Positions 2,208 through 21,905 of a stretch of 31,361 nucleotides of DNA are shown here, piece by piece (positions within the stretch are counted from its first letter, which is position 1; each line of letters begins with the position of its first letter). The notes beneath the pieces are model-generated. The model made no database searches, was not told the origin of the DNA, and was given only the letters and a program-made list of their open reading frames with translations. Both the position numbers and the translations under genes were made by a program. Source of the DNA: a virus. Its lineage: Duplodnaviria > Heunggongvirae > Uroviricota > Caudoviricetes. The stretch is taken from positions 316,732-348,092 of IMG/VR virus record IMGVR_UViG_3300037512_000782. The stretch is one strand, 5' to 3'.

Positions 2208-2744
2208 CTAGTAATACCAAACGGCGTAACAGCTCGTCTTGCCGTCCTTCTCGGTCGGAGGCTCGCTGTCGTAGTCGTCGAATCCGTGCTCAAAATTACT
2301 TGTTTCTTCCACGAGCGTCGCATAGGAGATCGGAGCATCCTCTTGTTCCATCCAGCAGATGAGGTTGGATACGCCCCAGTAGTTGGATTCACACTCATCC
2401 TTGACGCTCTTCGGCATTTCGTCCACGACGTACTTGCCGTCGAGTGATCCGTCGTAGAACGGCTCGATCTCCTTCGGATGGCGGAGGAACCAGAGCACGG
2501 TCTCCTTGCTCAGTTCTACGGAGTCTTTCTGGAAACCTAGTACATGGTTGAGGAAGTACTTGTCGTATCCGATGTACGCTGTATCTGCGTCGATCAGCGT
2601 CGCGTCATGTCGGCCCTTGTAGCCGAATCCGTCGGCGAACAGTTCGCCATTGACAAAACGGGCGAACGCCTCGTTATCGGCGCACACAAAGCAGTGTGCC
2701 GACGAGGAGTTCGTCTCGAAGGTATTGGGTCTTACAGTGCGCAT
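2208..2744 (-). CDS. FETNSSS-motif family protein #1
   Basis: N-terminus MRTVRPNTFETNSSSAH; TAATG coupling to upstream paralog. Confidence 0.85.
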   Translation of the reverse strand: MRTVRPNTFETNSSSAHCFVCADNEAFARFVNGELFADGFGYKGRHDATLIDADTAYIGYDKYFLNHVLGFQKDSVELSKETVLWFLRHPKEIEPFYDGSLDGKYVVDEMPKSVKDECESNYWGVSNLICWMEQEDAPISYATLVEETSNFEHGFDDYDSEPPTEKDGKTSCYAVWYY

Positions 2745-3220
2745 TATTGGTTTCCGAAGTATCCGAACGCCACTATGCCGTTCAACGAGTCATAGAATGT
2801 CTCGTAGTGGTAATGGTCGGAAATGTAGTAGTTATGCACGTTGCCGATGGAGTCGCTGATGAACGACTGGCGGATGTTGGCAATGACCCATTCCTCGTCA
2901 GTGTAGTCAGCGCGGCAATCCTCGTCTACATAGCTCCATTCGCCAGTGCCCATAAGAGCTTTCTTGAAAGTATCGAACGTAGGAATCTGCCCACAGAGCT
3001 TATTCTCGAAGTATTTCTCCATGTACGGACTCCAAGTAGAACGGTCTCTCTTGTAGATCGAGATGAACTGTTCATAGAGTTCTTCCGCAGTCTGCAAGGA
3101 TTCCCAATGCAAGAACAGCTCCATGTTCTTGAACTTCTCGTAGTTCTCTGTGGTACACATGCAGAGCACATGGGTAGACGAGGAGTTCGTCTCGAAAGTA
3201 CCAAGTCGTACAGTCTTCAT
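2744..3220 (-). CDS. FETNSSS-motif family protein #2
   Basis: MKTVRLGTFETNSSSTH; C-terminus IVAFGYFGNQ; AAGGAG RBS. Confidence 0.85.
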   Translation of the reverse strand: MKTVRLGTFETNSSSTHVLCMCTTENYEKFKNMELFLHWESLQTAEELYEQFISIYKRDRSTWSPYMEKYFENKLCGQIPTFDTFKKALMGTGEWSYVDEDCRADYTDEEWVIANIRQSFISDSIGNVHNYYISDHYHYETFYDSLNGIVAFGYFGNQ

Positions 3221-3229
3221 ACAAACTCC

Positions 3230-3667
3230 TTAGCATCCACCATAGTAGCCAAACGCGACGACTTCGGTGCCCTTGATGGTAGCGTGTCTCTCGAACGTCT
3301 CGTACTCGTCGAAGCCAAGACGGTTGAACGGCTGGAAGCTTTCGTCGCGGAGCCAGTCGGACACATAGTCGGTCTCTTCGCTCTTCTTGTCCCAGTCGTC
3401 GGTAGAGATGATGCGGATAACTTCAGAGAAGGCGGCAACGTCCATCGGCTGACGGTTGTGCTCTTCGCACCATTGAAGGTAGTCGCTCCAGGTAGAATAA
3501 CTGTCGTCGCGGAACTTTTCGAACAGTTCTTCTGCCGAAATGAGCGTTCCGCCACTGTACACGTACTTGCCAGCCTTGTAGGCTTCGTAGGTCTCCGGAT
3601 CCGTGATGCAGATCGCGTGGGTCGCGGAAGAGTTGGTTTCAAAGACATTCGTTCTGATGGTTTTCAT
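3230..3667 (-). CDS. FETNSSS-motif family protein #3
   Basis: True start MKTIRTNVFETNSSATH at 3667, 1 nt after upstream stop; C-terminus VVAFGYYGGC. Confidence 0.85.
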   Translation of the reverse strand: MKTIRTNVFETNSSATHAICITDPETYEAYKAGKYVYSGGTLISAEELFEKFRDDSYSTWSDYLQWCEEHNRQPMDVAAFSEVIRIISTDDWDKKSEETDYVSDWLRDESFQPFNRLGFDEYETFERHATIKGTEVVAFGYYGGC

Positions 3668-3668
3668 G

Positions 3669-4199
3669 TTAACCCCAACCATATTTGCCGAAGGCTACGA
3701 CATTCACGCCTTCGATCGTTTGTTCATAGGAGAACCATTCCTTCTCGTCATCGTCCTTCCATTCCTCGCACGTCTGCATTCCGTTTTCGGACAGCCATTG
3801 GCCAATGAATTCGAAAACTTCGCGATTGAGGTGAGTATTCTCGCCGAACTTGTCTGTAATCTCTTTCTTGAAGCTTTCAGTAAGTTCGTATCTGTCGTGT
3901 GAGTAGCAGCGCCGTGCTACCTTGTAATTCTGGATAACGAACTCGAATTCCTCGGCAGTCAGCTTTTCGGCGCGGTTCTCCGCGAGGTACTTCTCGTACT
4001 CGTCACTCTTGTAATCGCCATCTTGGTCGCCTTCGAGGAACATCTTGTACATATCGGACACGGTGAACAAGTCCTCGTGTTCAGTGCTGTACATGCCTTT
4101 GCCGTTCTCGAAGTCATCCCATCGAGATGCGGCAACCATGGTTAATGAGTGTGTCGATGACGAGTTCGTCTCGAACACACACGGTCTGACAGTTTTCAT
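3669..4199 (-). CDS. FETNSSS-motif family protein #4
   Basis: MKTVRPCVFETNSSSTH; C-terminus VVAFGKYGWG. Confidence 0.85.
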   Translation of the reverse strand: MKTVRPCVFETNSSSTHSLTMVAASRWDDFENGKGMYSTEHEDLFTVSDMYKMFLEGDQDGDYKSDEYEKYLAENRAEKLTAEEFEFVIQNYKVARRCYSHDRYELTESFKKEITDKFGENTHLNREVFEFIGQWLSENGMQTCEEWKDDDEKEWFSYEQTIEGVNVVAFGKYGWG

Positions 4200-4201
4200 C
4201 G

Positions 4202-6151
4202 CTAGTCCTCCAGCCAGTCGTTGAAGCTTGCGTCGCTTGGCATGCGCCAGTCGGCACGAGGAGAAAGGGACAGAGTACCAACCTTCGGGCCGTCAGGTAC
4301 GCAGCTACGCTTGAACTGCTGCGTGAAGAAGCGGCGGAGGAAGGTCTTGAGGGCCGTCTCCAGTTCGACTTCGCTGAAGTCTCCCTCGAACGCATACTTG
4401 GCGAGGTAGAGGATCTTGTCCGGCGTCGCACCGTACTTTACGAAGTGGTACAGATAGAAGTCGTGAAGGATGTAGTCGCCGAGGATGGATTCGGTCTTCT
4501 GCGTGATGTTTCCGTCCTTGTCGGTCGGAAGAAGCTCTGGGGAGACCGGAGTAGCGAGGATGTCCATGAGGACTTTGGACAGTTCGGCCTTGTCGCATAC
4601 CAAATCGGCATAAAATCTGACCAAGTAACGGACAAGCGTCTTGGGGATGTCGCAGTTTACGGAATACATGGACATGTGGTCGGCATTGTAGGTACACCAG
4701 CCGAGCGCGATTTCGGACAAGTCGCCAGTGCCGATGACGATGCCGTGTTCCTTGTTGGCCACGTCCATCAAGATCTGCGTACGTTCACGAGCTTGCACGT
4801 TTTCGTAGGTCACGTCGGCAATGTTTGGATCGTGCCCGATGTCCTTGAAGTGCTGGAAGCAAGCTTCCGTAATGTCGATGGTACGGAGTTCCACGCCGAG
4901 ATATTCGGCCATCTTTTCCGCATTGCCCTTGGTGCGCTTGGTAGTACCGAAGCCGGGCATGGTGATGGCGAGAATGTCCTTCGCTGGACGGTTCAAGAGC
5001 TTGTAAGTCTGGTAGATCACCAGCAATGCCAACGTGGAGTCAAGACCGCCAGAGAGTCCAATGACGGCTCGCTTGGTGTTGGACGCCTCAAGGCGCTTGG
5101 CAAGGGCAGCGCACTGGATGTTGAAGATTTCGCAGCACACTTCATTGCGGTGGTCACGAGTGCTCGGTACGAACGGAGTCTTGGCAACGTAACGATGCTT
5201 GAGTTCGTCAGACGTCATGATGAACGGAGCTCTGGCCGCACGGATGTCATACGGAGTAGAAATGAAGTCCTGGAAGTCGCCTTCGGAGATGCGCTGCATG
5301 GTGAGGCGCTTCACGTCGATATCGGCGTAGATGATTTCGCTCTCGCGAGAGAAGCGGTTTTCTTCGGCAAGCTTGCTGCCGTTCTCGGCGATGATCAAGT
5401 GGCCGCTGCAGACCATGTCGGTCGTGGATTCGTGGACACCAGCGGAGGCGTACACGTAGCCAGCCATGCAACGTGCGGACTGGTTGAGGACAAGGTTGCG
5501 ACGGTAGTCGGCCTTGCCTACGAGCGCGTCGCTTGCGGACAAGTTCACGATGACCTGTGCGCCAGAGAGCGCAAGGTATCCGCTTGGCGGATTCGGCACC
5601 CAGAGGTCTTCGCAGAGTTCACAGCCGATGACGAGGTCTTCGTCGGTCTTGATGAGGTTGGTGACCGGGACTTTGGCCCATCCGCAAAGCTTGCACACCT
5701 TCGGAATGCCACGGAGGAGTTCACGACCGCTGCTGAAGTAGCGCTTCTCGTAGAACTCGCGCTGGTTCGGAAGGTAGACCTTCGGAGTCACGGCGACGAT
5801 AGCGCCGCTTTCGATGAACACCGCGCAGTTGTAGAGGCGGCCATCGATGCGTACGGGTGCGCCGACGGCAACGATGATCTTCTGGCATTCGTTCATGGTG
5901 AACGCCTTGATGCGTTCGAGCGCTTCCTCGGCCTTATTGAGGAGCTGTTCTTGATGGAACAAGTCATTGCAAGTGTAGCCAGTGATGCACAGCTCCGGAA
6001 ACACGATCATGGTGGATTGCTCGTGGTACGCCTTGTTGATGCATTCGAGAATCTGGTCGGTGTTGTACGTTGTGTCGGCCACCTTCATCTTTGGACAAGC
6101 TGCAGCAAAGCGGTAAAAGCCGTGTTTGTTCATGGTGATATTTTCGTTCAT
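4202..6151 (-). CDS. nadE: Glutamine-dependent NAD+ synthetase
   Basis: N-terminal nitrilase-type glutaminase domain (FPEL, PKVYLPN..EFYEKR, ELCEDLW) plus synthetase domain (GLSGGLDST, ENVQARERT, GTGDLSE, QQFKRSCVPDGPKVG..SLSPR.DWRMPSD). Confidence 0.96.
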   Translation of the reverse strand: MNENITMNKHGFYRFAAACPKMKVADTTYNTDQILECINKAYHEQSTMIVFPELCITGYTCNDLFHQEQLLNKAEEALERIKAFTMNECQKIIVAVGAPVRIDGRLYNCAVFIESGAIVAVTPKVYLPNQREFYEKRYFSSGRELLRGIPKVCKLCGWAKVPVTNLIKTDEDLVIGCELCEDLWVPNPPSGYLALSGAQVIVNLSASDALVGKADYRRNLVLNQSARCMAGYVYASAGVHESTTDMVCSGHLIIAENGSKLAEENRFSRESEIIYADIDVKRLTMQRISEGDFQDFISTPYDIRAARAPFIMTSDELKHRYVAKTPFVPSTRDHRNEVCCEIFNIQCAALAKRLEASNTKRAVIGLSGGLDSTLALLVIYQTYKLLNRPAKDILAITMPGFGTTKRTKGNAEKMAEYLGVELRTIDITEACFQHFKDIGHDPNIADVTYENVQARERTQILMDVANKEHGIVIGTGDLSEIALGWCTYNADHMSMYSVNCDIPKTLVRYLVRFYADLVCDKAELSKVLMDILATPVSPELLPTDKDGNITQKTESILGDYILHDFYLYHFVKYGATPDKILYLAKYAFEGDFSEVELETALKTFLRRFFTQQFKRSCVPDGPKVGTLSLSPRADWRMPSDASFNDWLED

Positions 6152-6160
6152 GTGTGTACC

Positions 6161-6412
6161 TTAGTAGAAAAACACGTACGGACGACCGCCGATTACGGTC
6201 GGGTGCGCGGATGGTTTGTGGGTGGAACGAGGCTCGCTGCACTCGTTCTTCTTTTCAAGTTCGATCTTGGCACGGTATTTCTCGATACAAGCGTCATCGA
6301 GGAGGCAAGAATGCGCACGGTCGGCCTCGGCAGCAAGCCATAAGGACAGACCGATGAACACTACCAGCACAATCAAGAAGACAATATTGAGTTTCCAGAA
6401 ATCCCGATCCAT
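6161..6412 (-). CDS. Small membrane-anchored protein
   Basis: Single N-terminal TM segment; fills gap in operon. Confidence 0.6.
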   Translation of the reverse strand: MDRDFWKLNIVFLIVLVVFIGLSLWLAAEADRAHSCLLDDACIEKYRAKIELEKKNECSEPRSTHKPSAHPTVIGGRPYVFFY

Positions 6413-6420
6413 ATTGAATC

Positions 6421-6939
6421 CTAATCGTGGTTGTCGTTGTCGAGAACGACTTCACCGCCGCCGAACACGAAGCCGTAGAGTTCTTCCGGATCGTCACGCA
6501 CCATCTTTGCGAGGTACATGCAGTCGTCAGATTCGTGAGGTGCGCTCTGGTGGTCGATGTAGCCGGATACGTGCGCCGTAGGTATCTTGTCGTCGTCCCA
6601 CGGATCCACTTCAAACCAGATGGCATGCTGATTGCATTCGGCATCCAGCTTGTAGTTGACGGTTACGCCGTGCGTGGCGAACACTCGCTGGACTTCGGCC
6701 AATACACGTTCGCACTCTTCCTTGTTGGTTTTGCAAATGTAGGAATACGCGATGAGCGCATAGTCGAGAAGCTGCTCAGGCGTAACGAGGGCTTCGCCTT
6801 CTGGGCCCCAGCCGTACTCACCGTCGCAACCGACTTCGATGACGTAGTTGTCCTTGTCGCCGGGTGTGATCGTGTTGAACGTGATGGTGTGCATCGACGA
6901 TGAATTTGTCTCGAATACTTTGTTACGGATAGTCTTCAT
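6421..6939 (-). CDS. FETNSSS-motif family protein #5 (distinct subtype)
   Basis: MKTIRNKVFETNSSSMH; body with GEYGW, GYIDHQS, FVFGG..LDNDN unlike the other copies. Confidence 0.85.
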   Translation of the reverse strand: MKTIRNKVFETNSSSMHTITFNTITPGDKDNYVIEVGCDGEYGWGPEGEALVTPEQLLDYALIAYSYICKTNKEECERVLAEVQRVFATHGVTVNYKLDAECNQHAIWFEVDPWDDDKIPTAHVSGYIDHQSAPHESDDCMYLAKMVRDDPEELYGFVFGGGEVVLDNDNHD

Positions 6940-6945
6940 ATTGAC

Positions 6946-7620
6946 CTACGTGTGGAAGAAAGAAAGTGTACTCTTGTTGACGAGCAAGTCCTTGGCGTCG
7001 TAATCTTTGTCGTCGCCCACGTCGGTAGAGTACATGCCTTCGGTCGACTTCTTGTAGTCATCCCAGATAAGGTTGCAAGCAAGACCGACTTGACGAGAAA
7101 TCACTACGACCTTCTCGTCAATGTAACCTTGGTGTAGACGGCAGAACTCCTTGAACTCGGACGGACGCATGGTGTCGTAGTAGTTGTTGAGAGTACGGAA
7201 GCAGCATTCGTAGTTATTGTCCTCGTCCAAGACAACGTAATCGACTTCCTCGTTGACCAACTGATTGTAAGGGATACGGTGTCCCTTGTCGTCTACGACA
7301 TACACGTTGACACCCTTGGGCATCGGAAGCGCCATGTTGGCGTAGGCATACTTGAGGTCGTTGAGGACTTGCGTCATCGAGTCCGGGAACTTGCTTGCGC
7401 AGTGTACGGCCATCGTGCAGAGATATTCGATGATATCCTTCACGTCGCTCGTGCATGTGCCACTGCCACCGCAAGTCCAGTAGTGCTTGACCTCGACTTC
7501 GAGGATGCCGTCGGCATTCAGCTTGGGAAATTCTTCCGGCGAGCGCAACTCTTCGGAGAAGGTGATGCTATGCTCTGAGCTGGAGTTCGTCTCAAAGACA
7601 TGTTTTCTGATGGTACGCAT
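6946..7620 (-). CDS. FETNSSS-motif family protein #6 (longest, divergent)
   Basis: MRTIRKHVFETNSSSEH; TAATG coupling. Confidence 0.85.
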   Translation of the reverse strand: MRTIRKHVFETNSSSEHSITFSEELRSPEEFPKLNADGILEVEVKHYWTCGGSGTCTSDVKDIIEYLCTMAVHCASKFPDSMTQVLNDLKYAYANMALPMPKGVNVYVVDDKGHRIPYNQLVNEEVDYVVLDEDNNYECCFRTLNNYYDTMRPSEFKEFCRLHQGYIDEKVVVISRQVGLACNLIWDDYKKSTEGMYSTDVGDDKDYDAKDLLVNKSTLSFFHT

Positions 7621-8057
7621 TATTCACCCTTGTAGAAAGAAAGTGCCATGATTTCAGTGCCGTTGACCGTAGTTGTGGCAGTAGTCCAGTCGCAGCTGTA
7701 TCCAGCGGTGCAGTAGTCCCTCTGGAGAGTGTAGATAAAGCTATCGTACAGCATGACGTCGATCTCGACGTTCAACGCCGGGATGTTGTGCCAGTCCTCT
7801 ACCCACTTGCAGAAAGTTTCACAAGACGGCATGCGCTTGGCGACTTCTTGCTCGTCGAAAACCATTAGCTTGGTCTGTTCCTTGACATGTTCAGTGAAGA
7901 ACGGGTAAAGATCAGCGATGGGAACCATCTTCTTGTCTTTGGCGTTGTACACTGTACGGCGCTTGACGAAGTCCTCGTATTCCTTCGGCGTGACGAATGT
8001 GACGCAATGCGTCGACGAGGAGTTCGTCTCGAACACGGATTGACGGATAGTACGCAT
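7620..8057 (-). CDS. FETNSSS-motif family protein #7
   Basis: MRTIRQSVFETNSSSTHCVTF; C-terminus VNGTEIMALSFYKGE. Confidence 0.85.
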   Translation of the reverse strand: MRTIRQSVFETNSSSTHCVTFVTPKEYEDFVKRRTVYNAKDKKMVPIADLYPFFTEHVKEQTKLMVFDEQEVAKRMPSCETFCKWVEDWHNIPALNVEIDVMLYDSFIYTLQRDYCTAGYSCDWTTATTTVNGTEIMALSFYKGE

Positions 8058-8059
8058 TA

Positions 8060-8509
8060 TCAGTTGTCCCTATAGAGTGACAGAGCGAACAAGTCTTCGT
8101 CGCCCTTCTGTTTGACCTGGTCTTCGCAGAATCCGGACACCAAGAATTCATCATCGGCATGCAGATAGCGGAGGTTCCGACGGATGCAACTTACGGCAGC
8201 ATCGTCGGCTTCCATGACGCTCACGCCCTTCAGCACGTTGTCCCAGCTGTTGATCCAAGTGACGAATACCTCTTGGGTAGGCGTCAGCGCACGTACGGCG
8301 TCTTCTGGGGCCTCGCCCTTGAGGACAGAATCGTTGACCATTTCCATGAAGCGAGGATACATTTCCGACGCCGGAACGAGTTTTTCCTCGTAGATGTCGT
8401 ACACCAAGGAACGGTCGCGGAACCCATCGAGTTCCTTCTTGGTCAAGAAGGTGACGCAATGTGCCGATGACGAATTCGTCTCGAATACAGTTGGACGGAC
8501 GGTACGCAT
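8060..8509 (-). CDS. FETNSSS-motif family protein #8
   Basis: MRTVRPTVFETNSSSAHCVTF; C-terminus LFALSLYRDN. Confidence 0.85.
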   Translation of the reverse strand: MRTVRPTVFETNSSSAHCVTFLTKKELDGFRDRSLVYDIYEEKLVPASEMYPRFMEMVNDSVLKGEAPEDAVRALTPTQEVFVTWINSWDNVLKGVSVMEADDAAVSCIRRNLRYLHADDEFLVSGFCEDQVKQKGDEDLFALSLYRDN

Positions 8510-8512
8510 AGC

Positions 8513-8923
8513 CTACTCCGATACGTATGCGGAAACCGCATGGAACTTCTGGTCGCCAATAGTGCGTTCACTCTCTTCGATGTCGGCAACGCCGCCATAG
8601 GTATAGATGCCGGAACGGCGGCACGTTTCCCAGATGGCGTTATTCGCGTCTTCGTTGTCGTCGAACGGATCCCAGTCGTTGTCAATGAACTTCTTGGCCG
8701 CTTCGATGAACTCTTCGAGCGTAGGAATTTTGTCCATGTGACGATCCTTGCAGTCGAGCTGGAAGGATACATAGAAGTCTTCCCAAGTGGCCGGACTGTT
8801 CGTGAAGAAGTTGAACAGACCTTCATTGTTCTTGAAGTTCTGGAACTCTTCGTCCGTCATCAAGGTCACGCAATGCGTGGAGCTGGAATTGGTTTCGAAA
8901 ACCGATGTTCTGATAGTCTTCAT
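8513..8923 (-). CDS. FETNSSS-motif family protein #9
   Basis: MKTIRTSVFETNSSSTHCVTL; first gene after internal promoter. Confidence 0.85.
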   Translation of the reverse strand: MKTIRTSVFETNSSSTHCVTLMTDEEFQNFKNNEGLFNFFTNSPATWEDFYVSFQLDCKDRHMDKIPTLEEFIEAAKKFIDNDWDPFDDNEDANNAIWETCRRSGIYTYGGVADIEESERTIGDQKFHAVSAYVSE

Positions 8924-8932
8924 AATGCCCTC

Positions 8933-8961
8933 AATATAGCAAAATTAGATGGAGTTGTCAA
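8933..8961 (-). promoter_or_regulatory. Sigma70-type promoter TTGACA-N17-TATATT (extended -10 TGC)
   Basis: Minus strand TTGACA ACTCCATCTAATTTTGC TATATT; overlaps the 3' end of the Nif3 gene; 9 nt from ATG 8923. Confidence 0.8.
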
Positions 8962-9742
8962 TGTCGACGAACTCGGCCTCGACTCCCCAGCTAGCGACCA
9001 GCTTGGCGATGTTGCGCACACCGAATACTTCGGAACGGTGATGGCCAGCGGCGATAACTGCGATGCCGTATTCCTTGGCGAGGATCGGCGTGGACTCGCG
9101 GATTTCGCCAGTCACGAGCATGTCGTAGCCGTGCTTGATGACTTCATCGAACTCAGAAGCGGCGCTTCCAGTGCAGACGGCGACATTGTATTTCTTGCCG
9201 GACTCGAAGTTGAAGGACTGGTAGCCCTTGGGGAATACCTTGTCCAGAAGTTCGGTCGTGATGACGCCAGTTCCACCATAGCCGATGTTGTTGTACATGA
9301 AGCGTTCCGCGTCGAGCCAAGATACATACGAGTCGCACTTGGTTTCATGTTTCTCCACGCTCTTTTCGAGGCCGAGGTGCATGAACACCGTGGCGTTGTT
9401 GCCGTAGGTTTCGTGCGCATCGAGCGGCAAGTGGTAGCCGAACAACGATATGCCGTTCTGGATAAGCAAGCGGACGTAGTTGCCGAACTGCGAGTTGTCT
9501 ATGCACTTGTTCTTGTCGGAGTTCCAGAAGCCGTTGGGATGATGCACGAAGATGACGTCGGCACCACGCTTGATGGCTTCCTCGATGAGTTCCTTGCTAA
9601 GGCTTACCCCAGTGACGACCTTCTTGATTTCGCGTGTCTTGTCGCCGACGGCGTCGACGATGAGTCCGTTCGGACAGAAGTCCTTGAAGTCTTGGGGACG
9701 GAGATGGATGTTCAGATTGGTTTCGAGTGTAAGAAGGTTCAT
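8945..9742 (-). CDS. Nif3-like dinuclear metal-centre protein (YbgI family)
   Basis: D.CPNGL.V, VTGVS, ADVIFVHH, YHLPLDAH..YGNN, TGE, AGHHRSEVFG family motifs. Confidence 0.92.
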   Translation of the reverse strand: MNLLTLETNLNIHLRPQDFKDFCPNGLIVDAVGDKTREIKKVVTGVSLSKELIEEAIKRGADVIFVHHPNGFWNSDKNKCIDNSQFGNYVRLLIQNGISLFGYHLPLDAHETYGNNATVFMHLGLEKSVEKHETKCDSYVSWLDAERFMYNNIGYGGTGVITTELLDKVFPKGYQSFNFESGKKYNVAVCTGSAASEFDEVIKHGYDMLVTGEIRESTPILAKEYGIAVIAAGHHRSEVFGVRNIAKLVASWGVEAEFVDIDNSI

Positions 9743-10089
9743 TACTTCATCTCCTCGCGAGCTTTGTCGCAGAGAGTGTGGAGAAGACGGACGCTACGGT
9801 CTTCGTATGCGTCGATCGGCAAGGCGATCTTGCTGGCATCGTATTGCTGGTGAGTCGTCGATACGTGCTTGAGGAATTTTGCCAACGACTTTTCGCCAAT
9901 CACTTTGTCCGAAATGGCGAAGTAGGCTTGGCCGTCCTTCCAGTACAAGGTGTGGAGCCAGTCGCCATCTTCACTGACGCATTCGACGACACCGTCGGAT
10001 TCAAGGAAGACGACACTGGGGAAATAGGCGCGGATGTTGATCTTGTAGGTCTCAAGACCCATCGTGGGTTCTTTAATCTGTCTTGCCAT
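9742..10089 (-). CDS. Hypothetical protein
   Basis: Start reassigned to MARQIKE (AGGAGG RBS); TAATG coupling to Nif3 gene. Confidence 0.7.
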   Translation of the reverse strand: MARQIKEPTMGLETYKINIRAYFPSVVFLESDGVVECVSEDGDWLHTLYWKDGQAYFAISDKVIGEKSLAKFLKHVSTTHQQYDASKIALPIDAYEDRSVRLLHTLCDKAREEMK

Positions 10090-10099
10090 GTTGGCCTCC

Positions 10100-11020
10100 T
10101 TATTCTGCGATAATCTTCTTGTTTCTATACCAGCTGCCAGCGATGAGGCCGTCAGGATGCACGACGATTTCACGGAGAATCTTGTCGTCCTCGGTGCCTT
10201 CGAGGTCGTGCAACAGCTTCATGTTGGAATGGGACAGCGTAATGTTCAAGCCCTTGTAATTCCAAGTCTCGTAGACATAGTAGTCCTTGAGCACTTGTTC
10301 AACGAGCGTGGAGTTGTCGTAGAGGAAGTGCTTGAGCTGCTGGTACAAGTCATCCGTCGGCGCATTGTCGGTCACGTTGATGAGCCTACGGAAGCTGAGG
10401 TCGTCGATGTGTCCGATGTAATGGTCGATGTAGTCCTTGATCTCGTCGATGGACTGGAGTCCGTGCGGATGAAGGACGCACTGGAGACGGATCTTGGTCT
10501 TCGGATGATCTGCACGGTACTGGTCGAGCATGTCGAGGTCGAGAGCGCCGATGCCAGTATAGTCGTCGGCACCTACCTTGTGACGGGAGATGTTGACCCA
10601 GTCTGGATCGAGCTGGCTGTCGATGGTCTTGCTGAAGTTGGTGTTGATGTTGAGGAACACCTTGTAGTTTCCCTTCAAGAAGTCCACGACCTCGGCAGCG
10701 ATGGGGCTGAGGGACGGTTCGCCGCCAGTGATGCTAACCGTGGCCAGATGGCCTTGGCTATCGAGTTCGGCGATAAGTCTCATAAGATTGGCGGTCAGCT
10801 TGTCGGGGTTGTCCTTGAGGTGGCTTTCCTTCTCGATGCAGAACGGACAGCGAGCGTTGCAGCGGTCGGTGATCTTGATATGGACATGTTTCATCCAGAA
10901 GTCGTCCATGATGCGCCACTGCTTGCCGAACAGCGTGATCGGGGTATCGTACAGTTTTTCGTTGCTTTCCAGAACTGGGTTGAACGAGTAGTTCTTGATG
11001 TCGTGAATTTCCTGAATCAT
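10100..11020 (-). CDS. Radical SAM enzyme (rSAM-2)
   Basis: CNARCPFC (CxxxCxxC), SITGGEP, NTN, NISRH; start MIQEIH with AGGAG RBS. Confidence 0.92.
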   Translation of the reverse strand: MIQEIHDIKNYSFNPVLESNEKLYDTPITLFGKQWRIMDDFWMKHVHIKITDRCNARCPFCIEKESHLKDNPDKLTANLMRLIAELDSQGHLATVSITGGEPSLSPIAAEVVDFLKGNYKVFLNINTNFSKTIDSQLDPDWVNISRHKVGADDYTGIGALDLDMLDQYRADHPKTKIRLQCVLHPHGLQSIDEIKDYIDHYIGHIDDLSFRRLINVTDNAPTDDLYQQLKHFLYDNSTLVEQVLKDYYVYETWNYKGLNITLSHSNMKLLHDLEGTEDDKILREIVVHPDGLIAGSWYRNKKIIAE

Positions 11021-11028
11021 AGTATCTC

Positions 11029-11547
11029 CTAGTCGTCGCTGTTGGCCCATGCGTGACCGAAGGCCACAATGGTAGTGTTACGGTTTACCTTGCATTCCTT
11101 CTCAATGTAGTGGCAGTCGTCGTTGCCTTCATGTGAATGGTAGAACCCTTCGTAGAGGCAATAGCTGTTTTCGCGCAAGAACTTATGGATAAGGTCGATC
11201 AGTTTGTCGTCAACATGGTACTGGGTAACCTTTACCTTCTTGAGTTTCTTGATAATGTAATCGGTACTCCAGTAGTAGATTTCGGAAGCAATAATCAAGA
11301 AAGTGTCGGTGTTGATTACGCGGCACTGGTTCTTGGCGACAAATTCAGTGTAGCGCTTGTCTTCCTTGAACTCGGTGATTACGCGCTTGATGGACACGAT
11401 TTTCTCAAGAGTCGTGTCGAAGAAAGCCTTTCCGGACTTAAACTGGTCATACTGCGCCTTCGGCAGTGCGTAGAGTTCTTCGCCGACAGTGGCGGAATGT
11501 TCTGAGCTGGAGTTGGTTTCAAATACTCCACGGCGTATGGTTTTCAT
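11029..11547 (-). CDS. FETNSSS-motif family protein #10
   Basis: MKTIRRGVFETNSSSEH; C-terminus IVAFGHAW; directly upstream of rSAM-2. Confidence 0.85.
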   Translation of the reverse strand: MKTIRRGVFETNSSSEHSATVGEELYALPKAQYDQFKSGKAFFDTTLEKIVSIKRVITEFKEDKRYTEFVAKNQCRVINTDTFLIIASEIYYWSTDYIIKKLKKVKVTQYHVDDKLIDLIHKFLRENSYCLYEGFYHSHEGNDDCHYIEKECKVNRNTTIVAFGHAWANSDD

Positions 11548-11550
11548 TTG

Positions 11551-11814
11551 TTACTCCTTTATATGCAATTCCACTGCGAGGGTTTCTCGATCAGTGATCC
11601 AGTAGTTGTGAGTAGGGTCGCCTTTGTGCATTGCTTCGGACAAGGTCTTGGCGACACCCTTCGGCAACTGAATAGCGGCTCGGAAGCCGACATCCCAGAT
11701 GCCCCAAGTGGTCGTTTCAACGCTGAACCCAGTGAAGAACGATTGGATGGTTCTCGGAAAATTTTCACCGGGCCTCGCGACGGCGCTTCTGCAGATAATG
11801 TACTTTTTCGGCAT
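11551..11814 (-). CDS. Hypothetical protein
   Basis: Start reassigned to MPKKY (AAGGAG RBS). Confidence 0.65.
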   Translation of the reverse strand: MPKKYIICRSAVARPGENFPRTIQSFFTGFSVETTTWGIWDVGFRAAIQLPKGVAKTLSEAMHKGDPTHNYWITDRETLAVELHIKE

Positions 11815-11824
11815 GTTAATCTCC

Positions 11825-12217
11825 TTAAAGGAAGTCAATACCGTCGGAGAAGATAGCAACATCTTCTGGCATTTCATTTGTATTGATCTTTTCGGTTTCG
11901 GTAAAGATGAACGGCCCGTTAATACGGTTAATCACCTTTGCGACGCCATCGTCACCTACAGGCCAGACTTCGAAAAGCTCATACTCAAATTTGCGTCTCT
12001 TCCAACCATCATATTCTTGCGGAACGTAGGTCTTACAGAATTCCTTCGCAGTGATTTTGAGCTTTCCAGTGTTCTGATCAACGAGCTTCTTGTTGGAAGT
12101 AAGCATATAGAAATTGTCGAAACTATATGACTTAAATCTGATCAAGAACTTCTTGAGGTTATCAGCTTTTGACACGGTCTTTGCTGTAGTCTTTTTAGTA
12201 GTCGTTTTTGCTTTCAT
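11825..12217 (-). CDS. Hypothetical protein with Lys/Thr-rich N-terminus
   Basis: GAGG RBS; tiles operon. Confidence 0.7.
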   Translation of the reverse strand: MKAKTTTKKTTAKTVSKADNLKKFLIRFKSYSFDNFYMLTSNKKLVDQNTGKLKITAKEFCKTYVPQEYDGWKRRKFEYELFEVWPVGDDGVAKVINRINGPFIFTETEKINTNEMPEDVAIFSDGIDFL

Positions 12218-12237
12218 TGTTCAGCTTCCTCGTCGGT

Positions 12238-12564
12238 TTAATCAACCACTCGCTTGAATCTGTAGCCAGCATCGCGTTTAAACCCTTCTATGCGGCGTTC
12301 CTTTTCTTTCTTCGCCTCATCAAGCGTATTGAAGTGATGAGGGCCGAAAGGCGTTTCCCATTCATCTCTCCAATCCTCCCATACTTGGATGATGTAGGTT
12401 CCGTTTTCAAGTTCGACGATACGGACTTGGTGTTCGAAGTCGTCACCGGATGGATGATCCGCCGTCTGTTTCTTGTGGTCAATTATGACATACACAAGAA
12501 CCGCGACGAAAATGAAGAAAATCGCAATGCATGCGCTAAACGCAGCCACATCACCATTAGTCAT
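12238..12564 (-). CDS. Membrane-anchored hypothetical protein
   Basis: N-terminal TM helix; ATGA overlap with upstream gene. Confidence 0.7.
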   Translation of the reverse strand: MTNGDVAAFSACIAIFFIFVAVLVYVIIDHKKQTADHPSGDDFEHQVRIVELENGTYIIQVWEDWRDEWETPFGPHHFNTLDEAKKEKERRIEGFKRDAGYRFKRVVD

Positions 12565-12824
12565 TTTGATTTCTCCTTTGAATGTTGCATGCGCATTGAT
12601 TCGATACAGCTATGGTATACTACCGCAATGTACGTGATAATTCGATTCTCGACTGGATCAAGCCGAACAATCGAGTCGTCACGACTAGTGTCGATGATCA
12701 GCGTGGGAGTCTTCGCTCGTGTACGCTTGATTTTCACGAACACGGAGTTTCCCAAGCTGTCTTCGAGCTGGTTGACGAAGTGCCTACGCGCTGGTTCCGA
12801 TACGAACTTGAACACGAAACGCAT
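12561..12824 (-). CDS. Hypothetical protein
   Basis: Starts 1 nt after rSAM-1 stop; tiles operon. Confidence 0.6.
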   Translation of the reverse strand: MRFVFKFVSEPARRHFVNQLEDSLGNSVFVKIKRTRAKTPTLIIDTSRDDSIVRLDPVENRIITYIAVVYHSCIESMRMQHSKEKSK

Positions 12825-12825
12825 C

Positions 12826-13848
12826 TTACCATCCTTGCGTGGTGATCTTCAGAAGCTCGGCGATGTTCTCCTTGCCAGTGAAGTCGTAACGCTTGTCGAG
12901 CGCGGCGGTGCTCATACGAGCCACCTTCATGTTCGGCACGTCGATATACATGGTGCAGCAAGTGATGTTGCCTTCGCCGTCGGTGACGTCGGTGTCGCTG
13001 CCCTGGAAGAGAGTGTTGAATTCCTTGTCGGAAATGTTCAGCACGGTCTTGGGGTCGACTTGTTCGAGGCCGAGACAGTCGAAGGAGATGCACTTGCACT
13101 GCTTCTTGAGTTCCGGCAAGTAGGCGACGAGCCACTGGATCTTCGTCTTGATCTTGTCGGACTGGTTTTCGAACAAGATGTGACCACGGCGCAAGTCCTT
13201 GTAGCCGAGCACGAGGATCTTGTGGCCCTTGACGAACTCAACGTCGTCTTGGGAGAAGATGCCAGCGATTACGTGGATGACAACGTTGTTGCCCAGTTCG
13301 TTGATGATGGACAAGTCGTCCTTGTTGGTGGAGTCAGTGAGCGACACGCCGATTCCGTGGATGAGTTCTTCCTTGACGTACTTCAAGAGCTTGGACTTGT
13401 AGCGCTGGAGGTGCTGCTGGTTCACGGTGATGTTGGCGATGACTCCTTGTTCCTTCAAGACCTTGAGCATCCATTCCAAGTCAGGGTGCGCAAGGGCGTT
13501 GCCGCCGCCGATTGCACATTCGGTGCCAGCGTGGAGCGAACGGAACACGGGTTCCATGCCGACGAGGTCGCCGTGGGCTCCCTTGATGGTGGAGTTTTCG
13601 TGACAGTAGATGCAGCCGCCGTCGCAGTAGTCCGTGATCTTGATGTCGAAGTTTTCGGGGAAGCTGTAGGTGAAGTGGTCTTGGTCGTCTTCGACCCAGA
13701 CGTTGGCACCGTTCTTGGGATTCTTTTCCCAGTGTCCGGTGGACTTGACCTTGGTTCCGTCCTCGAAGATGACAACGGAATGGTTGCCGTTGATGTAGTG
13801 TCCGAGGACTTTCTTAGAGATAAGCATAGTGAGTTTTTTCATTTCCAT
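12826..13848 (-). CDS. Radical SAM enzyme (rSAM-1)
   Basis: DIKITDYCDGGCIYCHE (CxxxCxxC), AIGGGN (GGE variant), NITVN, GIGVS; start probably at 13848 or 13842, just below the -10 box. Confidence 0.92.
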   Translation of the reverse strand: MEMKKLTMLISKKVLGHYINGNHSVVIFEDGTKVKSTGHWEKNPKNGANVWVEDDQDHFTYSFPENFDIKITDYCDGGCIYCHENSTIKGAHGDLVGMEPVFRSLHAGTECAIGGGNALAHPDLEWMLKVLKEQGVIANITVNQQHLQRYKSKLLKYVKEELIHGIGVSLTDSTNKDDLSIINELGNNVVIHVIAGIFSQDDVEFVKGHKILVLGYKDLRRGHILFENQSDKIKTKIQWLVAYLPELKKQCKCISFDCLGLEQVDPKTVLNISDKEFNTLFQGSDTDVTDGEGNITCCTMYIDVPNMKVARMSTAALDKRYDFTGKENIAELLKITTQGW

Positions 13849-13854
13849 GTCCAA

Positions 13855-13883
13855 AATATAGCACAAATCGGCGTATGTGTCAA
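13855..13883 (-). promoter_or_regulatory. Sigma70-type promoter TTGACA-N17-TATATT heading the rSAM/FETNSSS locus
   Basis: Minus strand TTGACA CATACGCCGATTTGTGC TATATT. Confidence 0.82.
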
Positions 13884-18010: not shown

Positions 18011-19012
18011 CTACCTCATGTCATCGGTCTTTTTATTGACACGTTCGATGTAGGAGACCAAGCACTTCGCATAGACCTTCACTTCGTCGGTCATCTTGAC
18101 GAAGGCGTCGACGATGTCCTTAACGGTCTTTTCATTCGACAACTTTATGGAGTTGTTAGACGGCTTCTTAATATGATGGCCGTCTAGTCCATAGTTTTCA
18201 ATGGTCTGCACGATTTCAAACAGGTCAACTATTTCCTTCTCGTGTTCGTAGAAATAATGGTCAAAGCAGTCTTTGACGACTTCCGTCAATACATAGAAAT
18301 TCCCGTCGCCGTCCATCGACACCGTGGCTTCCTTGTCGCTACAGAGGATGTACTTTACACCTCCGTAGCAGACGACGGTGTAGTTGACACAAGTAGTCAT
18401 GTCTTCCGGTAAGATGAATTCCTTGGTATGGTCGATGACGACGCCGTACTTTTTGTCGTCGTTAATACAGATGCCAGCGTCGTCAAGTCGTCTGTGGATT
18501 TCGAAAATCTCGTTGATCTGGGAAAGCGACGAGTGCAGCTGGTATGCGGCTGTACGCATCTTGTCGATATAGCTCTGGCGTTCCCAGTCGTCGCCCTTCT
18601 TGGTAGTGTCGATGAGTTTGTCCAGCTTCTTGAACACGCTCTCGCTGTCCATAGAGAACAAGGAGTTCGGGTTGGGTGCGCCCACGTACACGGCGGTATT
18701 GACCGTCTCGCCGAGCTTGTGCGTAATCTCGCAACGGCGAGATTCCTCGATGAGCGTCGTGAAGATGCGCTTCACGGACTCCTTCATCGCTTCCCTAGTA
18801 TCGTCGCTCACAAGGCCCTCGGTAAAGTCATAAACCATGTCGATTACTTTGTGTTCGCGACGTTCATCGACGATCGGAAGTTCGCCGAGCTGCTTGTACT
18901 CGGCGATCTGCTTGACCACGTCCATTCTGCGTACGATGTTCTGTACGATTTCCTTGTCGATGCCGTCGATTTCTTGACGGCAACCTTCAATGAGTTCTTC
19001 GGAATGAGACAT
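18011..19012 (-). CDS. Chorismate mutase type II (AroQ-like) domain fused to unknown C-terminal region
   Basis: RQEIDGIDKEIV...RRMDVVKQIAEYK....PIVDERRE...IF..LIEESR matches CM_2 consensus. Confidence 0.8.
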   Translation of the reverse strand: MSHSEELIEGCRQEIDGIDKEIVQNIVRRMDVVKQIAEYKQLGELPIVDERREHKVIDMVYDFTEGLVSDDTREAMKESVKRIFTTLIEESRRCEITHKLGETVNTAVYVGAPNPNSLFSMDSESVFKKLDKLIDTTKKGDDWERQSYIDKMRTAAYQLHSSLSQINEIFEIHRRLDDAGICINDDKKYGVVIDHTKEFILPEDMTTCVNYTVVCYGGVKYILCSDKEATVSMDGDGNFYVLTEVVKDCFDHYFYEHEKEIVDLFEIVQTIENYGLDGHHIKKPSNNSIKLSNEKTVKDIVDAFVKMTDEVKVYAKCLVSYIERVNKKTDDMR

Positions 19013-19725
19013 TAGCGTTCTCCCTTGCCGTGGTCATAGGTGCCACGATCGATTTCCTTCAAGACATGGGAATAGTCTTCGGTATTATGCGTATAGAAGT
19101 GGAAGTAACGGTTGACCGGATGGACGATGATGTCGGGGTCGACGACTGAAATGACATGGATGTACCAGTTGTCGCTGCTCATGTCGCCGAAATCCTTTAT
19201 AGCCACGTTGAACACGAGCTTGAAGATGTTGTTGAAGTGGTAAGGGAACGAGATGGGGAACATTTCGTCCGCGATGTCGTTCAAGAGGCGCTGCAAGCAG
19301 GGCGGCTTGTCTTCCTTGGTAACGTTCGTCAGATCGGTTTCGGACTTGACAACGACGAACCTCACTCGGCGGTCGTCGTCGAAGAACGTGGTTCCGTCCG
19401 GCTTGGTGATGCGGTAGAAACTCAACGGCAAGTCTTTAAATGTCTCGAACTTCCAGCCCACGTACTTGTCGGTCTTGTATCGAGCAGGGTATTCGGACGG
19501 CTTCTTCAGTTCGGACTTCTCGATGGGTGCGAGACGGTCTCCCCACAAAGCCTGACACAGCACGTTCGACGCAAAGTGCCACGACGCGCCGGAATGGTTG
19601 TCCGATTCCATGGCCTTGTAAGCCTTCTGTGCGGATCTCACGCAGCCAGAGAAGTATCCGCCCCAGCCGTCTTTATGTTCCTTTTCCAGAAATTCCGCAA
19701 AGCGGTCAAATTCTTTATCGTACAT
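19012..19725 (-). CDS. Hypothetical protein (HSGASW motif)
   Basis: GAGGT RBS; first gene after promoter; TAATG coupling. Confidence 0.75.
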   Translation of the reverse strand: MYDKEFDRFAEFLEKEHKDGWGGYFSGCVRSAQKAYKAMESDNHSGASWHFASNVLCQALWGDRLAPIEKSELKKPSEYPARYKTDKYVGWKFETFKDLPLSFYRITKPDGTTFFDDDRRVRFVVVKSETDLTNVTKEDKPPCLQRLLNDIADEMFPISFPYHFNNIFKLVFNVAIKDFGDMSSDNWYIHVISVVDPDIIVHPVNRYFHFYTHNTEDYSHVLKEIDRGTYDHGKGER

Positions 19726-19832: not shown

Positions 19833-21905
19833 ATGATGTACGACTTCCATTACTATCTTTGCTCTCTCCCCAGCTCGCCGCTCGTAGAGGCCGTCCGTGC
19901 CTTGTACGAGGCTTCCGAAGGCGACGCCAGAAAATACATGAAGAAGATGCTCCAGTCCTTGGGGCTAGAACAGGAACTCGCCCAAGGATACGGCGACAAC
20001 TGGGCGGAAACCGCGTTCAACAAGATTAGGAACGCCTTCGTCCACCAAGGATGTGACGTCTACTTCGTGCCCGGTATCGCCAGAATCGCCTACGGCGACC
20101 TACACTTCGACAGCGAGGACGAGGACACGCAGAAGCTGGCGCTTCTGAAGAACTTGGTGAAGTTCATCACGATAGCCCACAAGGCGCAGTTCACTAGAAA
20201 CTTGGAAAAGATCGACGTGGTTCAGGAAGGGCCACAGAAGGGAATGAAGGTCAAGTCCAAGCCGCTTACGCTAGACCAGCTGTCCACGATGTTCTCTAGG
20301 GAGCAGAAGGAAGTGACTGGCAAGGCACGTGAGCAGTTCGCCAAGGAGCATGCGAACTCCGAAGGCAACGGATACAAGATAATCGAATTGAAGAATTTTG
20401 AACAAGCGCACCAGTTCCTACCGTACTGCACGGCGGACAAGTGGTGCTACTTGCAGAACGAGAGTACGTTCGACTCGTACGCTGGCGGAGGCAACAAGCT
20501 CTACTTGGCGCTAGCCCCAGGCTTCGAGAAGCTGAAGCCCGGTGACCCAGGGTATGGACGTTCCATGATCGGTTTCGACATGGGCCCAGTTGACGAGAAC
20601 GGCAAGTCGGAGCTGTGCGTCTGCACCAACCGATACAACCACGCGGAGAACTTGGAGCACGAGGAAGGCGCTGGCTCCGGCGACTCCGCCTATGACGAAA
20701 TTCAGTTGTCCAAGATTCTCGGATTCCCAGTATGGGAACGTTGTCCGGGATACACGGTCGACGAAATGCTCGCCAACGGCCTCATGAACATGGAGACGAT
20801 GAAGACTATCGTCACCACCGACGACGAACTGACGAAGCTCGCCAGAGACAAAAAGTATCAGCTAGAATTCTTGAAGAAATACCGTGTGGAAGCCAAGGAA
20901 GAATGGCGAGCGCCTGGGTTCTGTGTCAGCTTCTGCAAGATAAACAAGCGTGGATTCCATACGACGGAATGGTTCGCGATGTTGACGGACGAGCCGGATC
21001 ACTTGCTATGGTTCAAGGGGTTCAGCCGACTGAACGCCGACGTATACTCACTTGAGGTCGGTTCGCATAAATACATGGTCGTGTTCCAGACTGGCAAACC
21101 GCTTTCGAATGACGTATTCTACAAGGTCGGCGGCGACCATTTCCCGATTGCCGTATGCAAGATGATCGACGGCGAGAAGCGCTACAACTACCTCGACTTA
21201 GCCGGAAATTATATCAGCAAAGACTGGTTCGCCCATGTAGGGGCGTTCGACGTATACACCCAGTTTGCTTGTGTACAGCGTGACGACGGCAAGGAGAATG
21301 TAATCAATAAGGCCGGAAAGATAGTACTGGGCGAGTGGTATGACAGTATAAAGAGAGAGTACGACAAGGGATTCTACTTTGTTGCGGATGATAAGGATGT
21401 TGGGAAGAAATTGCTTTACACATGGGAGATGAAGCCGTTCTGTGGCTACGTCGACGAAATGAAACCATTATCCGGTGTCGGCGTCCTCGTCAAGTCCAAC
21501 GGAAAGTACAACGTGGCCATTCCGAGTGAGTGCTGCATGCTGTGCAACCTCTGGTTCGACGCTATCGACGAAAGGGTATACACCGCACAAAACGGTTCGT
21601 ATGTCATTCTAGTGTTCGATAAGGATCAAGGATACAACTTCATCGACATCGGAACGCACAAGCAAGTCCTCGACAGATGGTATCAGTCCATAAAGTACAT
21701 GGAGCATGGATACTTCTTGGTCAAGGAAGGCGGCAAGCTGAACATTTACGAACCGATCTTGAACAGCTTCGTGCTTCCGCAGTGGTTCGATGACCGTGGC
21801 GCTCCACAGATTCTCGACGAACACAAGTTCGCTGGCTTGTGGATAGGCGACAGGCCAGTGCAAGTCATCGACGGCAAGATTGTTCCATCATCTAGCGAAG
21901 TTTAA
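19833..21905 (+). CDS. Large protein with shared N-terminal ALYE tag and C-terminal WG-like beta repeats
   Basis: N-terminus DFHYYLCSLPSSPLVEAVRALYE; repeats such as YNYLDLAGNYISKDWF, ENVINKAGKIVLGEWY, YNFIDIGTHKQVLDRWY. Confidence 0.75.
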   Translation: MMYDFHYYLCSLPSSPLVEAVRALYEASEGDARKYMKKMLQSLGLEQELAQGYGDNWAETAFNKIRNAFVHQGCDVYFVPGIARIAYGDLHFDSEDEDTQKLALLKNLVKFITIAHKAQFTRNLEKIDVVQEGPQKGMKVKSKPLTLDQLSTMFSREQKEVTGKAREQFAKEHANSEGNGYKIIELKNFEQAHQFLPYCTADKWCYLQNESTFDSYAGGGNKLYLALAPGFEKLKPGDPGYGRSMIGFDMGPVDENGKSELCVCTNRYNHAENLEHEEGAGSGDSAYDEIQLSKILGFPVWERCPGYTVDEMLANGLMNMETMKTIVTTDDELTKLARDKKYQLEFLKKYRVEAKEEWRAPGFCVSFCKINKRGFHTTEWFAMLTDEPDHLLWFKGFSRLNADVYSLEVGSHKYMVVFQTGKPLSNDVFYKVGGDHFPIAVCKMIDGEKRYNYLDLAGNYISKDWFAHVGAFDVYTQFACVQRDDGKENVINKAGKIVLGEWYDSIKREYDKGFYFVADDKDVGKKLLYTWEMKPFCGYVDEMKPLSGVGVLVKSNGKYNVAIPSECCMLCNLWFDAIDERVYTAQNGSYVILVFDKDQGYNFIDIGTHKQVLDRWYQSIKYMEHGYFLVKEGGKLNIYEPILNSFVLPQWFDDRGAPQILDEHKFAGLWIGDRPVQVIDGKIVPSSSEV

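Follow-up and report, generated by a model that had tools for sequence, protein, structure and literature searches.

A recurrent N-terminal tag on an array of phage proteins is tied to one radical SAM enzyme

The window analysed here, 31,361 nucleotides at positions 316,732 to 348,092, is the terminal part of the 348,092-base linear virus record IMGVR_UViG_3300037512_000782. It carries ten minus-strand genes whose products all begin with one 17-residue segment, M-[KR]-T-[IV]-R-x-x-[VT]-F-E-T-N-S-S-[SA]-x-H (the tag), and two genes with the CxxxCxxC motif of radical S-adenosylmethionine (SAM) enzymes, rSAM-1 and rSAM-2. The tag is a real feature that extends beyond the window, and it is tied to radical SAM chemistry through one enzyme only, rSAM-1. 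An earlier note on this DNA had connected both enzymes with the tag. For rSAM-1 the connection stands, through linkage in both directions and three natural fusions; for rSAM-2 it falls, since its relatives lack tagged neighbours. The reading that we consider likeliest, at somewhat less than an even chance, is that rSAM-1 covalently modifies the tag of its client proteins, the two forming a two-part phage protein-maturation module; it rests on sequence comparison and structure models. The copies are named below by their start positions, and types A and B refer to profiles of the bodies that follow the tag.

2208..2744, minus: tagged protein, 178 amino acids (aa), linked to the type-A cluster by BLAST and not by profile score
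2744..3220, minus: tagged protein, 158 aa, type-A body (34.8 bits)
3230..3667, minus: tagged protein, 145 aa, type-A body, used for the structure model
3669..4199, minus: tagged protein, 176 aa, type-A body (49.6 bits)
6421..6939, minus: tagged protein, 172 aa, type-B body (73.2 bits)
6946..7620, minus: tagged protein, 224 aa, body in a cluster of its own, with links to two of the copies about 140 kb away
7620..8057, minus: tagged protein, 145 aa, type-A body (37.6 bits)
8060..8509, minus: tagged protein, 149 aa, type-A body, nearest to copy 8057 (33% body identity)
8513..8923, minus: tagged protein, 136 aa, type-A body (28.6 bits)
11029..11547, minus: tagged protein, 172 aa, type-A body (47.6 bits)
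12826..13848, minus: rSAM-1, cognate radical SAM enzyme, 340 aa (motif, model, linkage)
10100..11020, minus: rSAM-2, radical SAM gene, 306 aa, outside the tag system (linkage of relatives)
175968-177820 of the virus record (G000:C1), plus: three further tagged genes, 196, 203 and 156 aa, about 140 kb before the window, within the tRNA region

The tag and its linkage to rSAM-1

A six-frame scan of the window finds the motif at exactly ten positions, all on the minus strand and each 24 nt inside its ATG (2744, 3220, 3667, 4199, 6939, 7620, 8057, 8509, 8923 and 11547). The scan thus agrees with the ten genes of 136-224 aa first described, and the alignment agrees that residues 1-17 hold no indel and that the copies stand in blocks of four, five and one. 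Both radical SAM genes are likewise real. In the whole 348-kb genome the motif occurs elsewhere at just three more genes, giving 13 tagged proteins in total; these three (176-177 kb) have no radical SAM gene nearby and would be clients in trans. The genome is that of a giant cattle-rumen phage, 91% complete, with 42 tRNA genes. Rumen assemblies binned as Fibrobacter or Prevotella contain near-identical loci, as do bovine gut runs, and the bins do not fix the host.

Across the ten window copies M1, T3, R5, F9, E10, T11, N12, S13, S14 and H17 are invariant. The codons used for the tag vary from copy to copy (Ser is encoded by TCN and by AGC), which rules out a DNA repeat as its origin and indicates selection at the protein level. 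Among 143 non-redundant copies each residue of the series R, F, E, T, N, S, S, S, H is kept in 135-143, figures that are upper bounds since the retrieval pattern favours those residues. The register is also fixed: of 251 copies, 228 have the Phe at position 9 or 10. AlphaFold2 assigns no secondary structure to residues 1-15 of copy 3667, and the predicted local distance difference test (pLDDT) gives 59 and 73 for the first two ten-residue blocks. The tag is thus predicted to lie outside the folded core; a buried strand, which the earlier note had named among the findings that would speak against its proposal, is not what the model gives.

Linkage was followed in both directions. When loci were fetched by client, 62 of 84 held an rSAM-1 homologue, as did 46 of the 57 full-length loci, and all three near-complete genomes that lack a local rSAM-1 carry the enzyme elsewhere, in trans. 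When loci were fetched by the enzyme alone, 114 of the 115 that were well flanked carried a tagged gene, 113 of them within 1.5 kb; in the single exception the tagged gene lies about 37 kb away on the same contig. This reverse linkage holds in 22 of 23 enzyme clusters at 80% identity. The neighbourhood enrichment that had been proposed as a check is thus borne out for rSAM-1. A tagged gene is the neighbour in 43 of 51 lineages, and the best other neighbour family in 11 of 51. By this count there is no third conserved partner. No protease or transporter is conserved near the pair, and the commonest other neighbours, judged by eye, are RNA-repair and nucleotide enzymes. One enzyme serves 1-13 tagged partners. 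The pair spans phages of at least five bacterial phyla, whose hosts include aerobes and an oxygenic cyanobacterium.

Cultured phages contain the pair as well. In Microcystis phage Ma-LMM01 gp130 (tagged) lies two genes before gp128 (the enzyme), in the Lak megaphage Lak-A1 five tagged genes follow the enzyme, and in RM378 and YS40 divergent tags adjoin their enzymes. Moreover, the two parts occur as one polypeptide. In gp146c of Salmonella phage Arash, residues 1-141 correspond to gp130 (E 2e-9), and rSAM-1 is matched by residues 167-359 (E 7e-17). Similar fusions are encoded by the Methylobacterium plasmid pVL1_2 and the Deferribacter plasmid pDF308, and the tag is N-terminal in all three. 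A search for longer fused client forms returned none, at a low sensitivity that does not amount to absence, the fusions being known from annotated records. A 288-aa database protein, P0240, has two tandem tagged units, with tags at residue 1 and about residue 166, possibly by read-through or as a mis-called fusion.

rSAM-2 behaves differently from rSAM-1. It was found in just two near-identical loci among the 84 fetched by client, and three of its relatives, a small sample, lack tagged genes both in the vicinity and on the rest of their contigs; the relatives (52-91% identity) sit in unrelated phage contexts. Its membership in the system is therefore rejected. The gap of 8 nt between rSAM-2 and copy 11547, given in the earlier note, holds for the rSAM-2 start at 11020, a start backed by a 91% homologue. 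Against the Hxs models of NCBIfam rSAM-2 scores 38 bits, with a cut-off of 268.

The enzyme, its clients and known systems

By motif and predicted fold rSAM-1 belongs to the radical SAM superfamily. The CxxxCxxC motif lies at residues 75-82, its C75, C79 and C82 being invariant throughout the 65 family members, and G114-G116 of the Gly-rich SAM motif is conserved. PF04055 is found in 58 of the 65, the window rSAM-1 falling below the cut-off. The model (pLDDT 93) shows a four-stranded N-terminal beta-meander (residues 14-53), a partial barrel and a C-terminal hairpin (residues 299-313) that is twitch-like and free of Cys, and its top Foldseek and VIA matches are radical SAM enzymes. Judged from the model, its closest structural matches are the peptide maturases SuiB (Z 18.0, root-mean-square deviation (rmsd) 4.0, 289 aligned) and SkfB (Z 17.9, rmsd 4.1, 276 aligned), both aligned from the N-terminus on. 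EpeE (Z 16.4), viperin (Z 16.1, rmsd 3.1, 223 aligned), BlsE (Z 16.0) and PqqE (Z 15.7) come next, and anSME/AtsB (Z 14.5, rmsd 3.8, 252 aligned) and pyruvate formate-lyase (PFL) activase (Z 11.2) are also matched.

The three cluster ligands are the only invariant cysteines of the family. No SPASM Pfam domain is matched in the 65 members, and 105 of 177 homologues have no Cys in the last 110 aa, some having none after CxxxCxxC; the subclade of the window has extra Cys at 258 and 297, not universal in the family. The invariant polar residues H192, K210, K217, R221, D257, Q263, D303 and S313 are candidates for catalysis. A clade of 12 core enzymes is supported at 99/99, and long branches leave the order of His, fused and SPASM forms unsettled. 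Matches to the enzyme number more than 500 each in viral and in metagenome contigs. In 400 genomes sampled from the phylum to which a Eubacterium carrier belongs, no rSAM-1-type enzyme turned up; the gene is thus one of mobile elements.

The bodies of the clients are diverged, and the other nine window copies have 17-28% identity to the first. The earlier description of them as highly divergent holds in this respect; they are not unrelated, however, and seven share one domain. Once the first 24 residues are cut off, 7 of the 10 match an independent type-A profile at 25-65 bits (best shuffle 9.3), copy 6939 matches the type-B profile at 73 bits, and copies 7620 and 2744 are assigned to neither. 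By sequence, then, the bodies are mostly of one domain family. Their architecture is a conserved base with a variable insert. In the model of copy 3667 (pLDDT 91) a strand starts at residue 16, helices make up the middle and a hairpin forms the C-terminus; conserved G-x-D or G-N motifs are seen at the C-termini of clients. The clients are also acidic: the median isoelectric point (pI) of the part that begins with the motif is 4.45, and pI is below 5.3 in 12 of 13 full copies, against a median of 6.0 for other small open reading frames (ORFs). Copy number varies among close relatives. For instance, one locus whose enzyme is 95% identical has two copies fewer in the five-gene block.

The client profile matches 3,407 protein clusters at 50% identity, and the Atlas matches are mostly viral clusters without names. 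The statement that no characterised family has this motif agrees with the searches, which gave the clients no significant match in Pfam, PHROG, NCBIfam, PADLOC or PDB sequences; phrog_28997 matches them weakly and only over the motif. A fold search with the client model returned nothing in PDB or BFVD at E up to 0.001, a result that does not show a new fold. The best VIA match has Z 5.0, rmsd 3.0 and 56 aligned, and no pyruvoyl, N-terminal nucleophile (Ntn) or intein fold is among the matches listed.

In its likely mode of action the module is analogous to a leader-directed maturase that acts on whole proteins. On the tested features it fits none of the SPASM/twitch, anSME, glycyl-radical, Hxs, Avap or viperin families. 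The maturases of peptides made by the ribosome and modified after translation (RiPPs) that bear SPASM/twitch domains and a RiPP recognition element (RRE), namely SuiB-SuiA, SkfB, CteB, PqqE, EpeE and ChlB, are the best structural matches, from the N-terminal sheet to the start of twitch/SPASM, and share the logic of a constant N-terminal segment on variable partners. Unlike them, the rSAM-1 family has no conserved auxiliary cysteines. The RRE comprises three strands and three helices, whereas the N-terminal domain of rSAM-1 is beta-only in the model, which has no helices between residues 14 and 66; the SuiB and SkfB alignments span this sheet. RiPP precursors are short, with a leader and an unstructured core, whereas clients are folded proteins of 100-270 aa, often in large arrays; those of the window, at 136-224 aa and folded from residue 16 on in the modelled copy, are not short precursors.

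The anSME/AtsB enzymes are radical SAM enzymes whose targets are whole proteins, at a Ser/Cys motif in the N-terminal part, as proposed for rSAM-1. They differ from rSAM-1 in that anSME has two fully Cys-ligated auxiliary clusters (PMC8326336), none being conserved in rSAM-1, and the C/S-x-P-x-R motif of sulfatases is absent from the tag in the window copies and the wider set. The glycyl-radical activating enzymes and prokaryotic viperins are, like rSAM-1, compact radical SAM enzymes without a SPASM domain. Here the differences are that profile matches are weak and cover the N-terminal barrel only (PADLOC pVip, E 3e-5, profile positions 4-107 of 257), that there is no glycyl-radical motif, and that the partner gene is obligatory. 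As for the Hxs systems, rSAM-1 has no match to the HxsB and HxsC models of NCBIfam, and in place of H-x-S repeats the tag reads S-x-H once.

A sister branch occurs on plasmids of Agrobacterium, Rhodobacter and Rhizobium as cassettes with the order SMEK-domain gene, small tagged protein, rSAM/SPASM enzyme:

L258:3482-7918: sister plasmid cassette
L259:3463-7918: sister plasmid cassette
L261:3467-7918: sister plasmid cassette

Its tag reads F-V-[ST]-N-S-S-S, so that F-x-[ST]-N-S-S-S is the core common to both branches, and its enzyme is homologous (hhalign E 6e-20, 29% over 200 columns). The sister enzymes have a SPASM domain with 10 Cys after the motif, and their small tagged protein lacks the His; the phage branch has the His, no conserved Cys beyond the SAM cluster, and includes the fusions. 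Among the few cases seen, a tag with the His accompanies an enzyme that has lost the SPASM cysteines; YS40 departs from this. A sister-type system with fewer cysteines in its enzyme is also present in Vibrio phage D479. The SMEK-domain gene of Agrobacterium (L258) encodes a STAND NTPase matching Avs2 models, a defence-like setting; the phage loci showed no STAND gene. No published description of the sister system was found.

KpAvs2-Avap1-Avap2 (PMC11564622) also places a radical SAM protein and a small partner in phage-host conflict. Unlike the clients, however, the DUF6375 proteins (Avap2) have no N-S-S tag, and the resemblance of their enzymes to the rSAM-1 profile is confined to the surroundings of the cluster motif (E 3e-7). 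Two loci have an Avap-like layout, with the pair upstream of a long ORF:

L263:1504-2807: DUF6375 and radical SAM pair
L264:1495-2906: DUF6375 and radical SAM pair

Both lack the tag, and the DUF6375 protein of L264 has its own His/Ser-rich N-terminus, unlike the tag. PF19902 (DUF6375) has no match among the ten window copies at E up to 1, and a DUF6375 search of the genome, run without a positive control, was negative. Avap2 as the tagged partner is rejected on the PF19902 search and these two other DUF6375 loci, the KpAvs2 sequences themselves lying outside the comparison.

Proposed modification of the tag and its alternatives

The analysis shows the linkage, the fusions, the family of the enzyme, its lack of auxiliary cysteines and the predicted flexibility of the tag. 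Modification is favoured because the tag is flexible, nine of its side chains are near-invariant, its register to the N-terminus is fixed even in fusions, and one enzyme of peptide-maturase type, which can be encoded in trans, serves it. We infer binding, covalent modification, the residue, the chemistry and a role in host interaction. An enzyme of the rSAM-1 family would recognise the flexible tag of newly made clients. The first tag residues would probably dock on its N-terminal beta-sheet and the T-N-S-S-S stretch would enter the barrel, where the 5′-deoxyadenosyl radical would take hydrogen, most likely from a Ser, and a stable covalent change would be left beside the invariant His17. Since there is no conserved Cys beyond the SAM cluster, a redox-neutral or eliminative outcome (dehydration, bond scission or rearrangement) would be likelier than oxidation of the anSME type or Cys-dependent epimerisation; oxidative maturases use auxiliary clusters and epimerases a conserved Cys (PMC8326336), and the rSAM-1 family offers neither. 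The clients, small acidic proteins from host-type promoters, would probably be a diversified panel against host targets.

The predicted complex of rSAM-1, its cluster, SAM and copy 3667 lends weak support to binding. It scores 0.44, against 0.01 for the best control, the runs agree in at least 74% of contacts, and the partner pLDDT is at least 71. The mark for this score was reached by 58 of 80 solved pairs and 2 of 110 mismatched pairs; at 0.60 or under, it was reached by just 7 solved pairs and both mismatches.

Several points weigh against modification. In characterised RiPP systems the conserved N-terminal piece is usually a handle and not the modified site, the SuiA leader itself occupies the SuiB active site, and auxiliary clusters are called essential for modification in SPASM maturases (PMC8326336), with none conserved in rSAM-1. 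Fusions suit a stoichiometric partner as well as a substrate, and the viperin match leaves room for a small-molecule substrate. The YS40 partner has no His and the RM378 partner no Phe. Finally, many of the linked loci stem from a few related gut-phage clades.

Alternatively, the tag may be a docking handle only, with the tagged proteins as exchangeable specificity or regulatory subunits that, by their variable, acidic bodies, steer rSAM-1 to host proteins, nucleic acids or defence complexes, on which the radical chemistry would then take place. We consider this unlikely on balance, yet a serious contender. The three fusions, the conserved base with a variable insert, the 1-13 partners per enzyme with copy number differing between close relatives, the strong acidity of the clients, the Avs2-like STAND genes beside the sister branch and the usual role of leaders would all agree with it. 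Nevertheless, nine side chains of the tag hardly vary, three Ser and an Asn among them, which is more than leader handles are known to keep. Besides, clients fold right after His17, and if the tag fills the barrel, little space would be left for another macromolecular substrate.

An improbable account is a two-component enzyme, in which rSAM-1 places a transient or stable backbone radical on the tagged protein, in the manner of glycyl- or aminoacyl-radical activases, or both act on a small molecule such as a nucleotide. It draws on the lack of an auxiliary cluster, as in glycyl-radical activases and viperin, on the structural matches to viperin and PFL activase, and on nucleotide metabolism nearby, RNA-repair and nucleotide enzymes being the commonest other neighbours and NadE lying inside the array. 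However, an exposed stable protein radical is implausible in aerobes and an oxygenic cyanobacterium, no glycyl-radical loop R-V-x-G-[FWY] is visible at the C-termini of the ten window copies as read from the alignment, and thirteen divergent partners are hard to square with one small-molecule reaction.

Self-processing of the tag, by an N-O acyl shift or by cyclisation of Asn of the kind found in pyruvoyl, Ntn and intein proteins and independent of the radical enzyme, was raised in the earlier note and gained no support. Asn-Ser-Ser, the invariant His and the C-terminal G-x-D / G-N motifs could serve such a reaction, but it leaves the near-perfect linkage and the fusions unexplained, and the model puts the tag outside the folded core; we regard it as highly improbable. 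That the array is an ordinary set of paralogs, with the motif as a structural strand and the radical SAM genes as chance neighbours, applies to rSAM-2, and homology of the bodies means that shared ancestry explains part of the similarity; for rSAM-1 it is largely refuted by two-way linkage across phages of at least five bacterial phyla, the fusions and the unstructured tag, and is hardly credible.

The module is widespread and its clients are without Pfam, NCBIfam or PHROG description. Radical SAM maturation of whole proteins is known for a handful of enzymes, and no published description of it from phages was found. The cofactors that normally close such reactions are missing, so the chemistry may be new. 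More speculatively, and unlikely to hold in full, an enzyme free of auxiliary clusters might install a new modification on Ser, Asn or His of the tag, giving a protein-derived cofactor or reactive group that arms fast-diversifying phage proteins against host functions. Minimal versions for study exist in cultured phages, as gp128 plus gp130 of Ma-LMM01 and as the single polypeptide gp146 of Arash. If portable, the tag could be employed as a short handle for site-specific protein chemistry. A literature search that reached few subscription papers found no description of the motif, the phage radical SAM system or the Ma-LMM01 pair, and the system is not mentioned in the parts covered of Iyer 2021 (PMC7824862) or of Kaur 2020 (PMC7159879).

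Expression and neighbouring genes

Co-transcription of the locus, as first claimed, is not established, since promoter-like sites lie upstream of both rSAM-1 (13883) and copy 8923 (8961).

13855..13883, minus: sigma70-type promoter-like site TTGACA-17-TATATT, 6 nt 5′ of the rSAM-1 ATG (consensus match only)
8933..8961, minus: promoter-like site of the same class, heading the five-gene block with copy 8923 first
1069-1097: third promoter of the class

Sites of this class number 22 genome-wide and 0-4 in shuffles. Host-type promoter-like sites at rSAM-1 and the five-gene block fit non-structural expression, as judged from sequence. During Ma-LMM01 infection, RNA sequencing places gp128 and gp130 both in class B5, with replication and recombination genes (PMC5780444), and in bloom data the two are on one co-expression branch, by column count in this analysis (PMC5584929); the shared classes also include neighbouring genes, which makes this weak evidence. 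Two studies of the rumen provide three metatranscriptomes in which rSAM-1 and tagged genes are covered by contigs that come from relatives and are mostly 90-99% alike; the cover is near-uniform and has no silent control, and so falls short of showing transcription. Positions 2034-2208 of the window are missing in the relatives of two RNA runs. In run X3 a relative bridges positions 11549-12233 and is without two small ORFs that lie between rSAM-1 and copy 11547.

Other genes stand in and around the array. A glutamine-dependent NAD synthetase (NadE; CN_hydrolase and NAD_synthase) at window 4202-6151 is inserted inside it and elsewhere is not a conserved neighbour of the rSAM-1-family enzyme. 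A NIF3/DUF34 gene at 8945-9742 is placed with rSAM-2 between tagged blocks. A GT2-like glycosyltransferase gene lies at 24-941 and a protein with a C-terminal DUF5662 domain is encoded at 1109-2014. On the other side, a 333-aa ORF at 18011-19012 begins with a domain of the chorismate mutase type II family (E 2e-17), which is unusual in a phage, and the ORF at 19012-19725 has a weak match to the Thoeris inhibitor Tad3 over residues 5-71 (E 0.0045, below cut-off). The plus-strand ORFs at 19833, 29536 and 30510 have in common another N-terminal segment, unlike the tag, that runs for about 25 residues and closes with A-L-Y-E.

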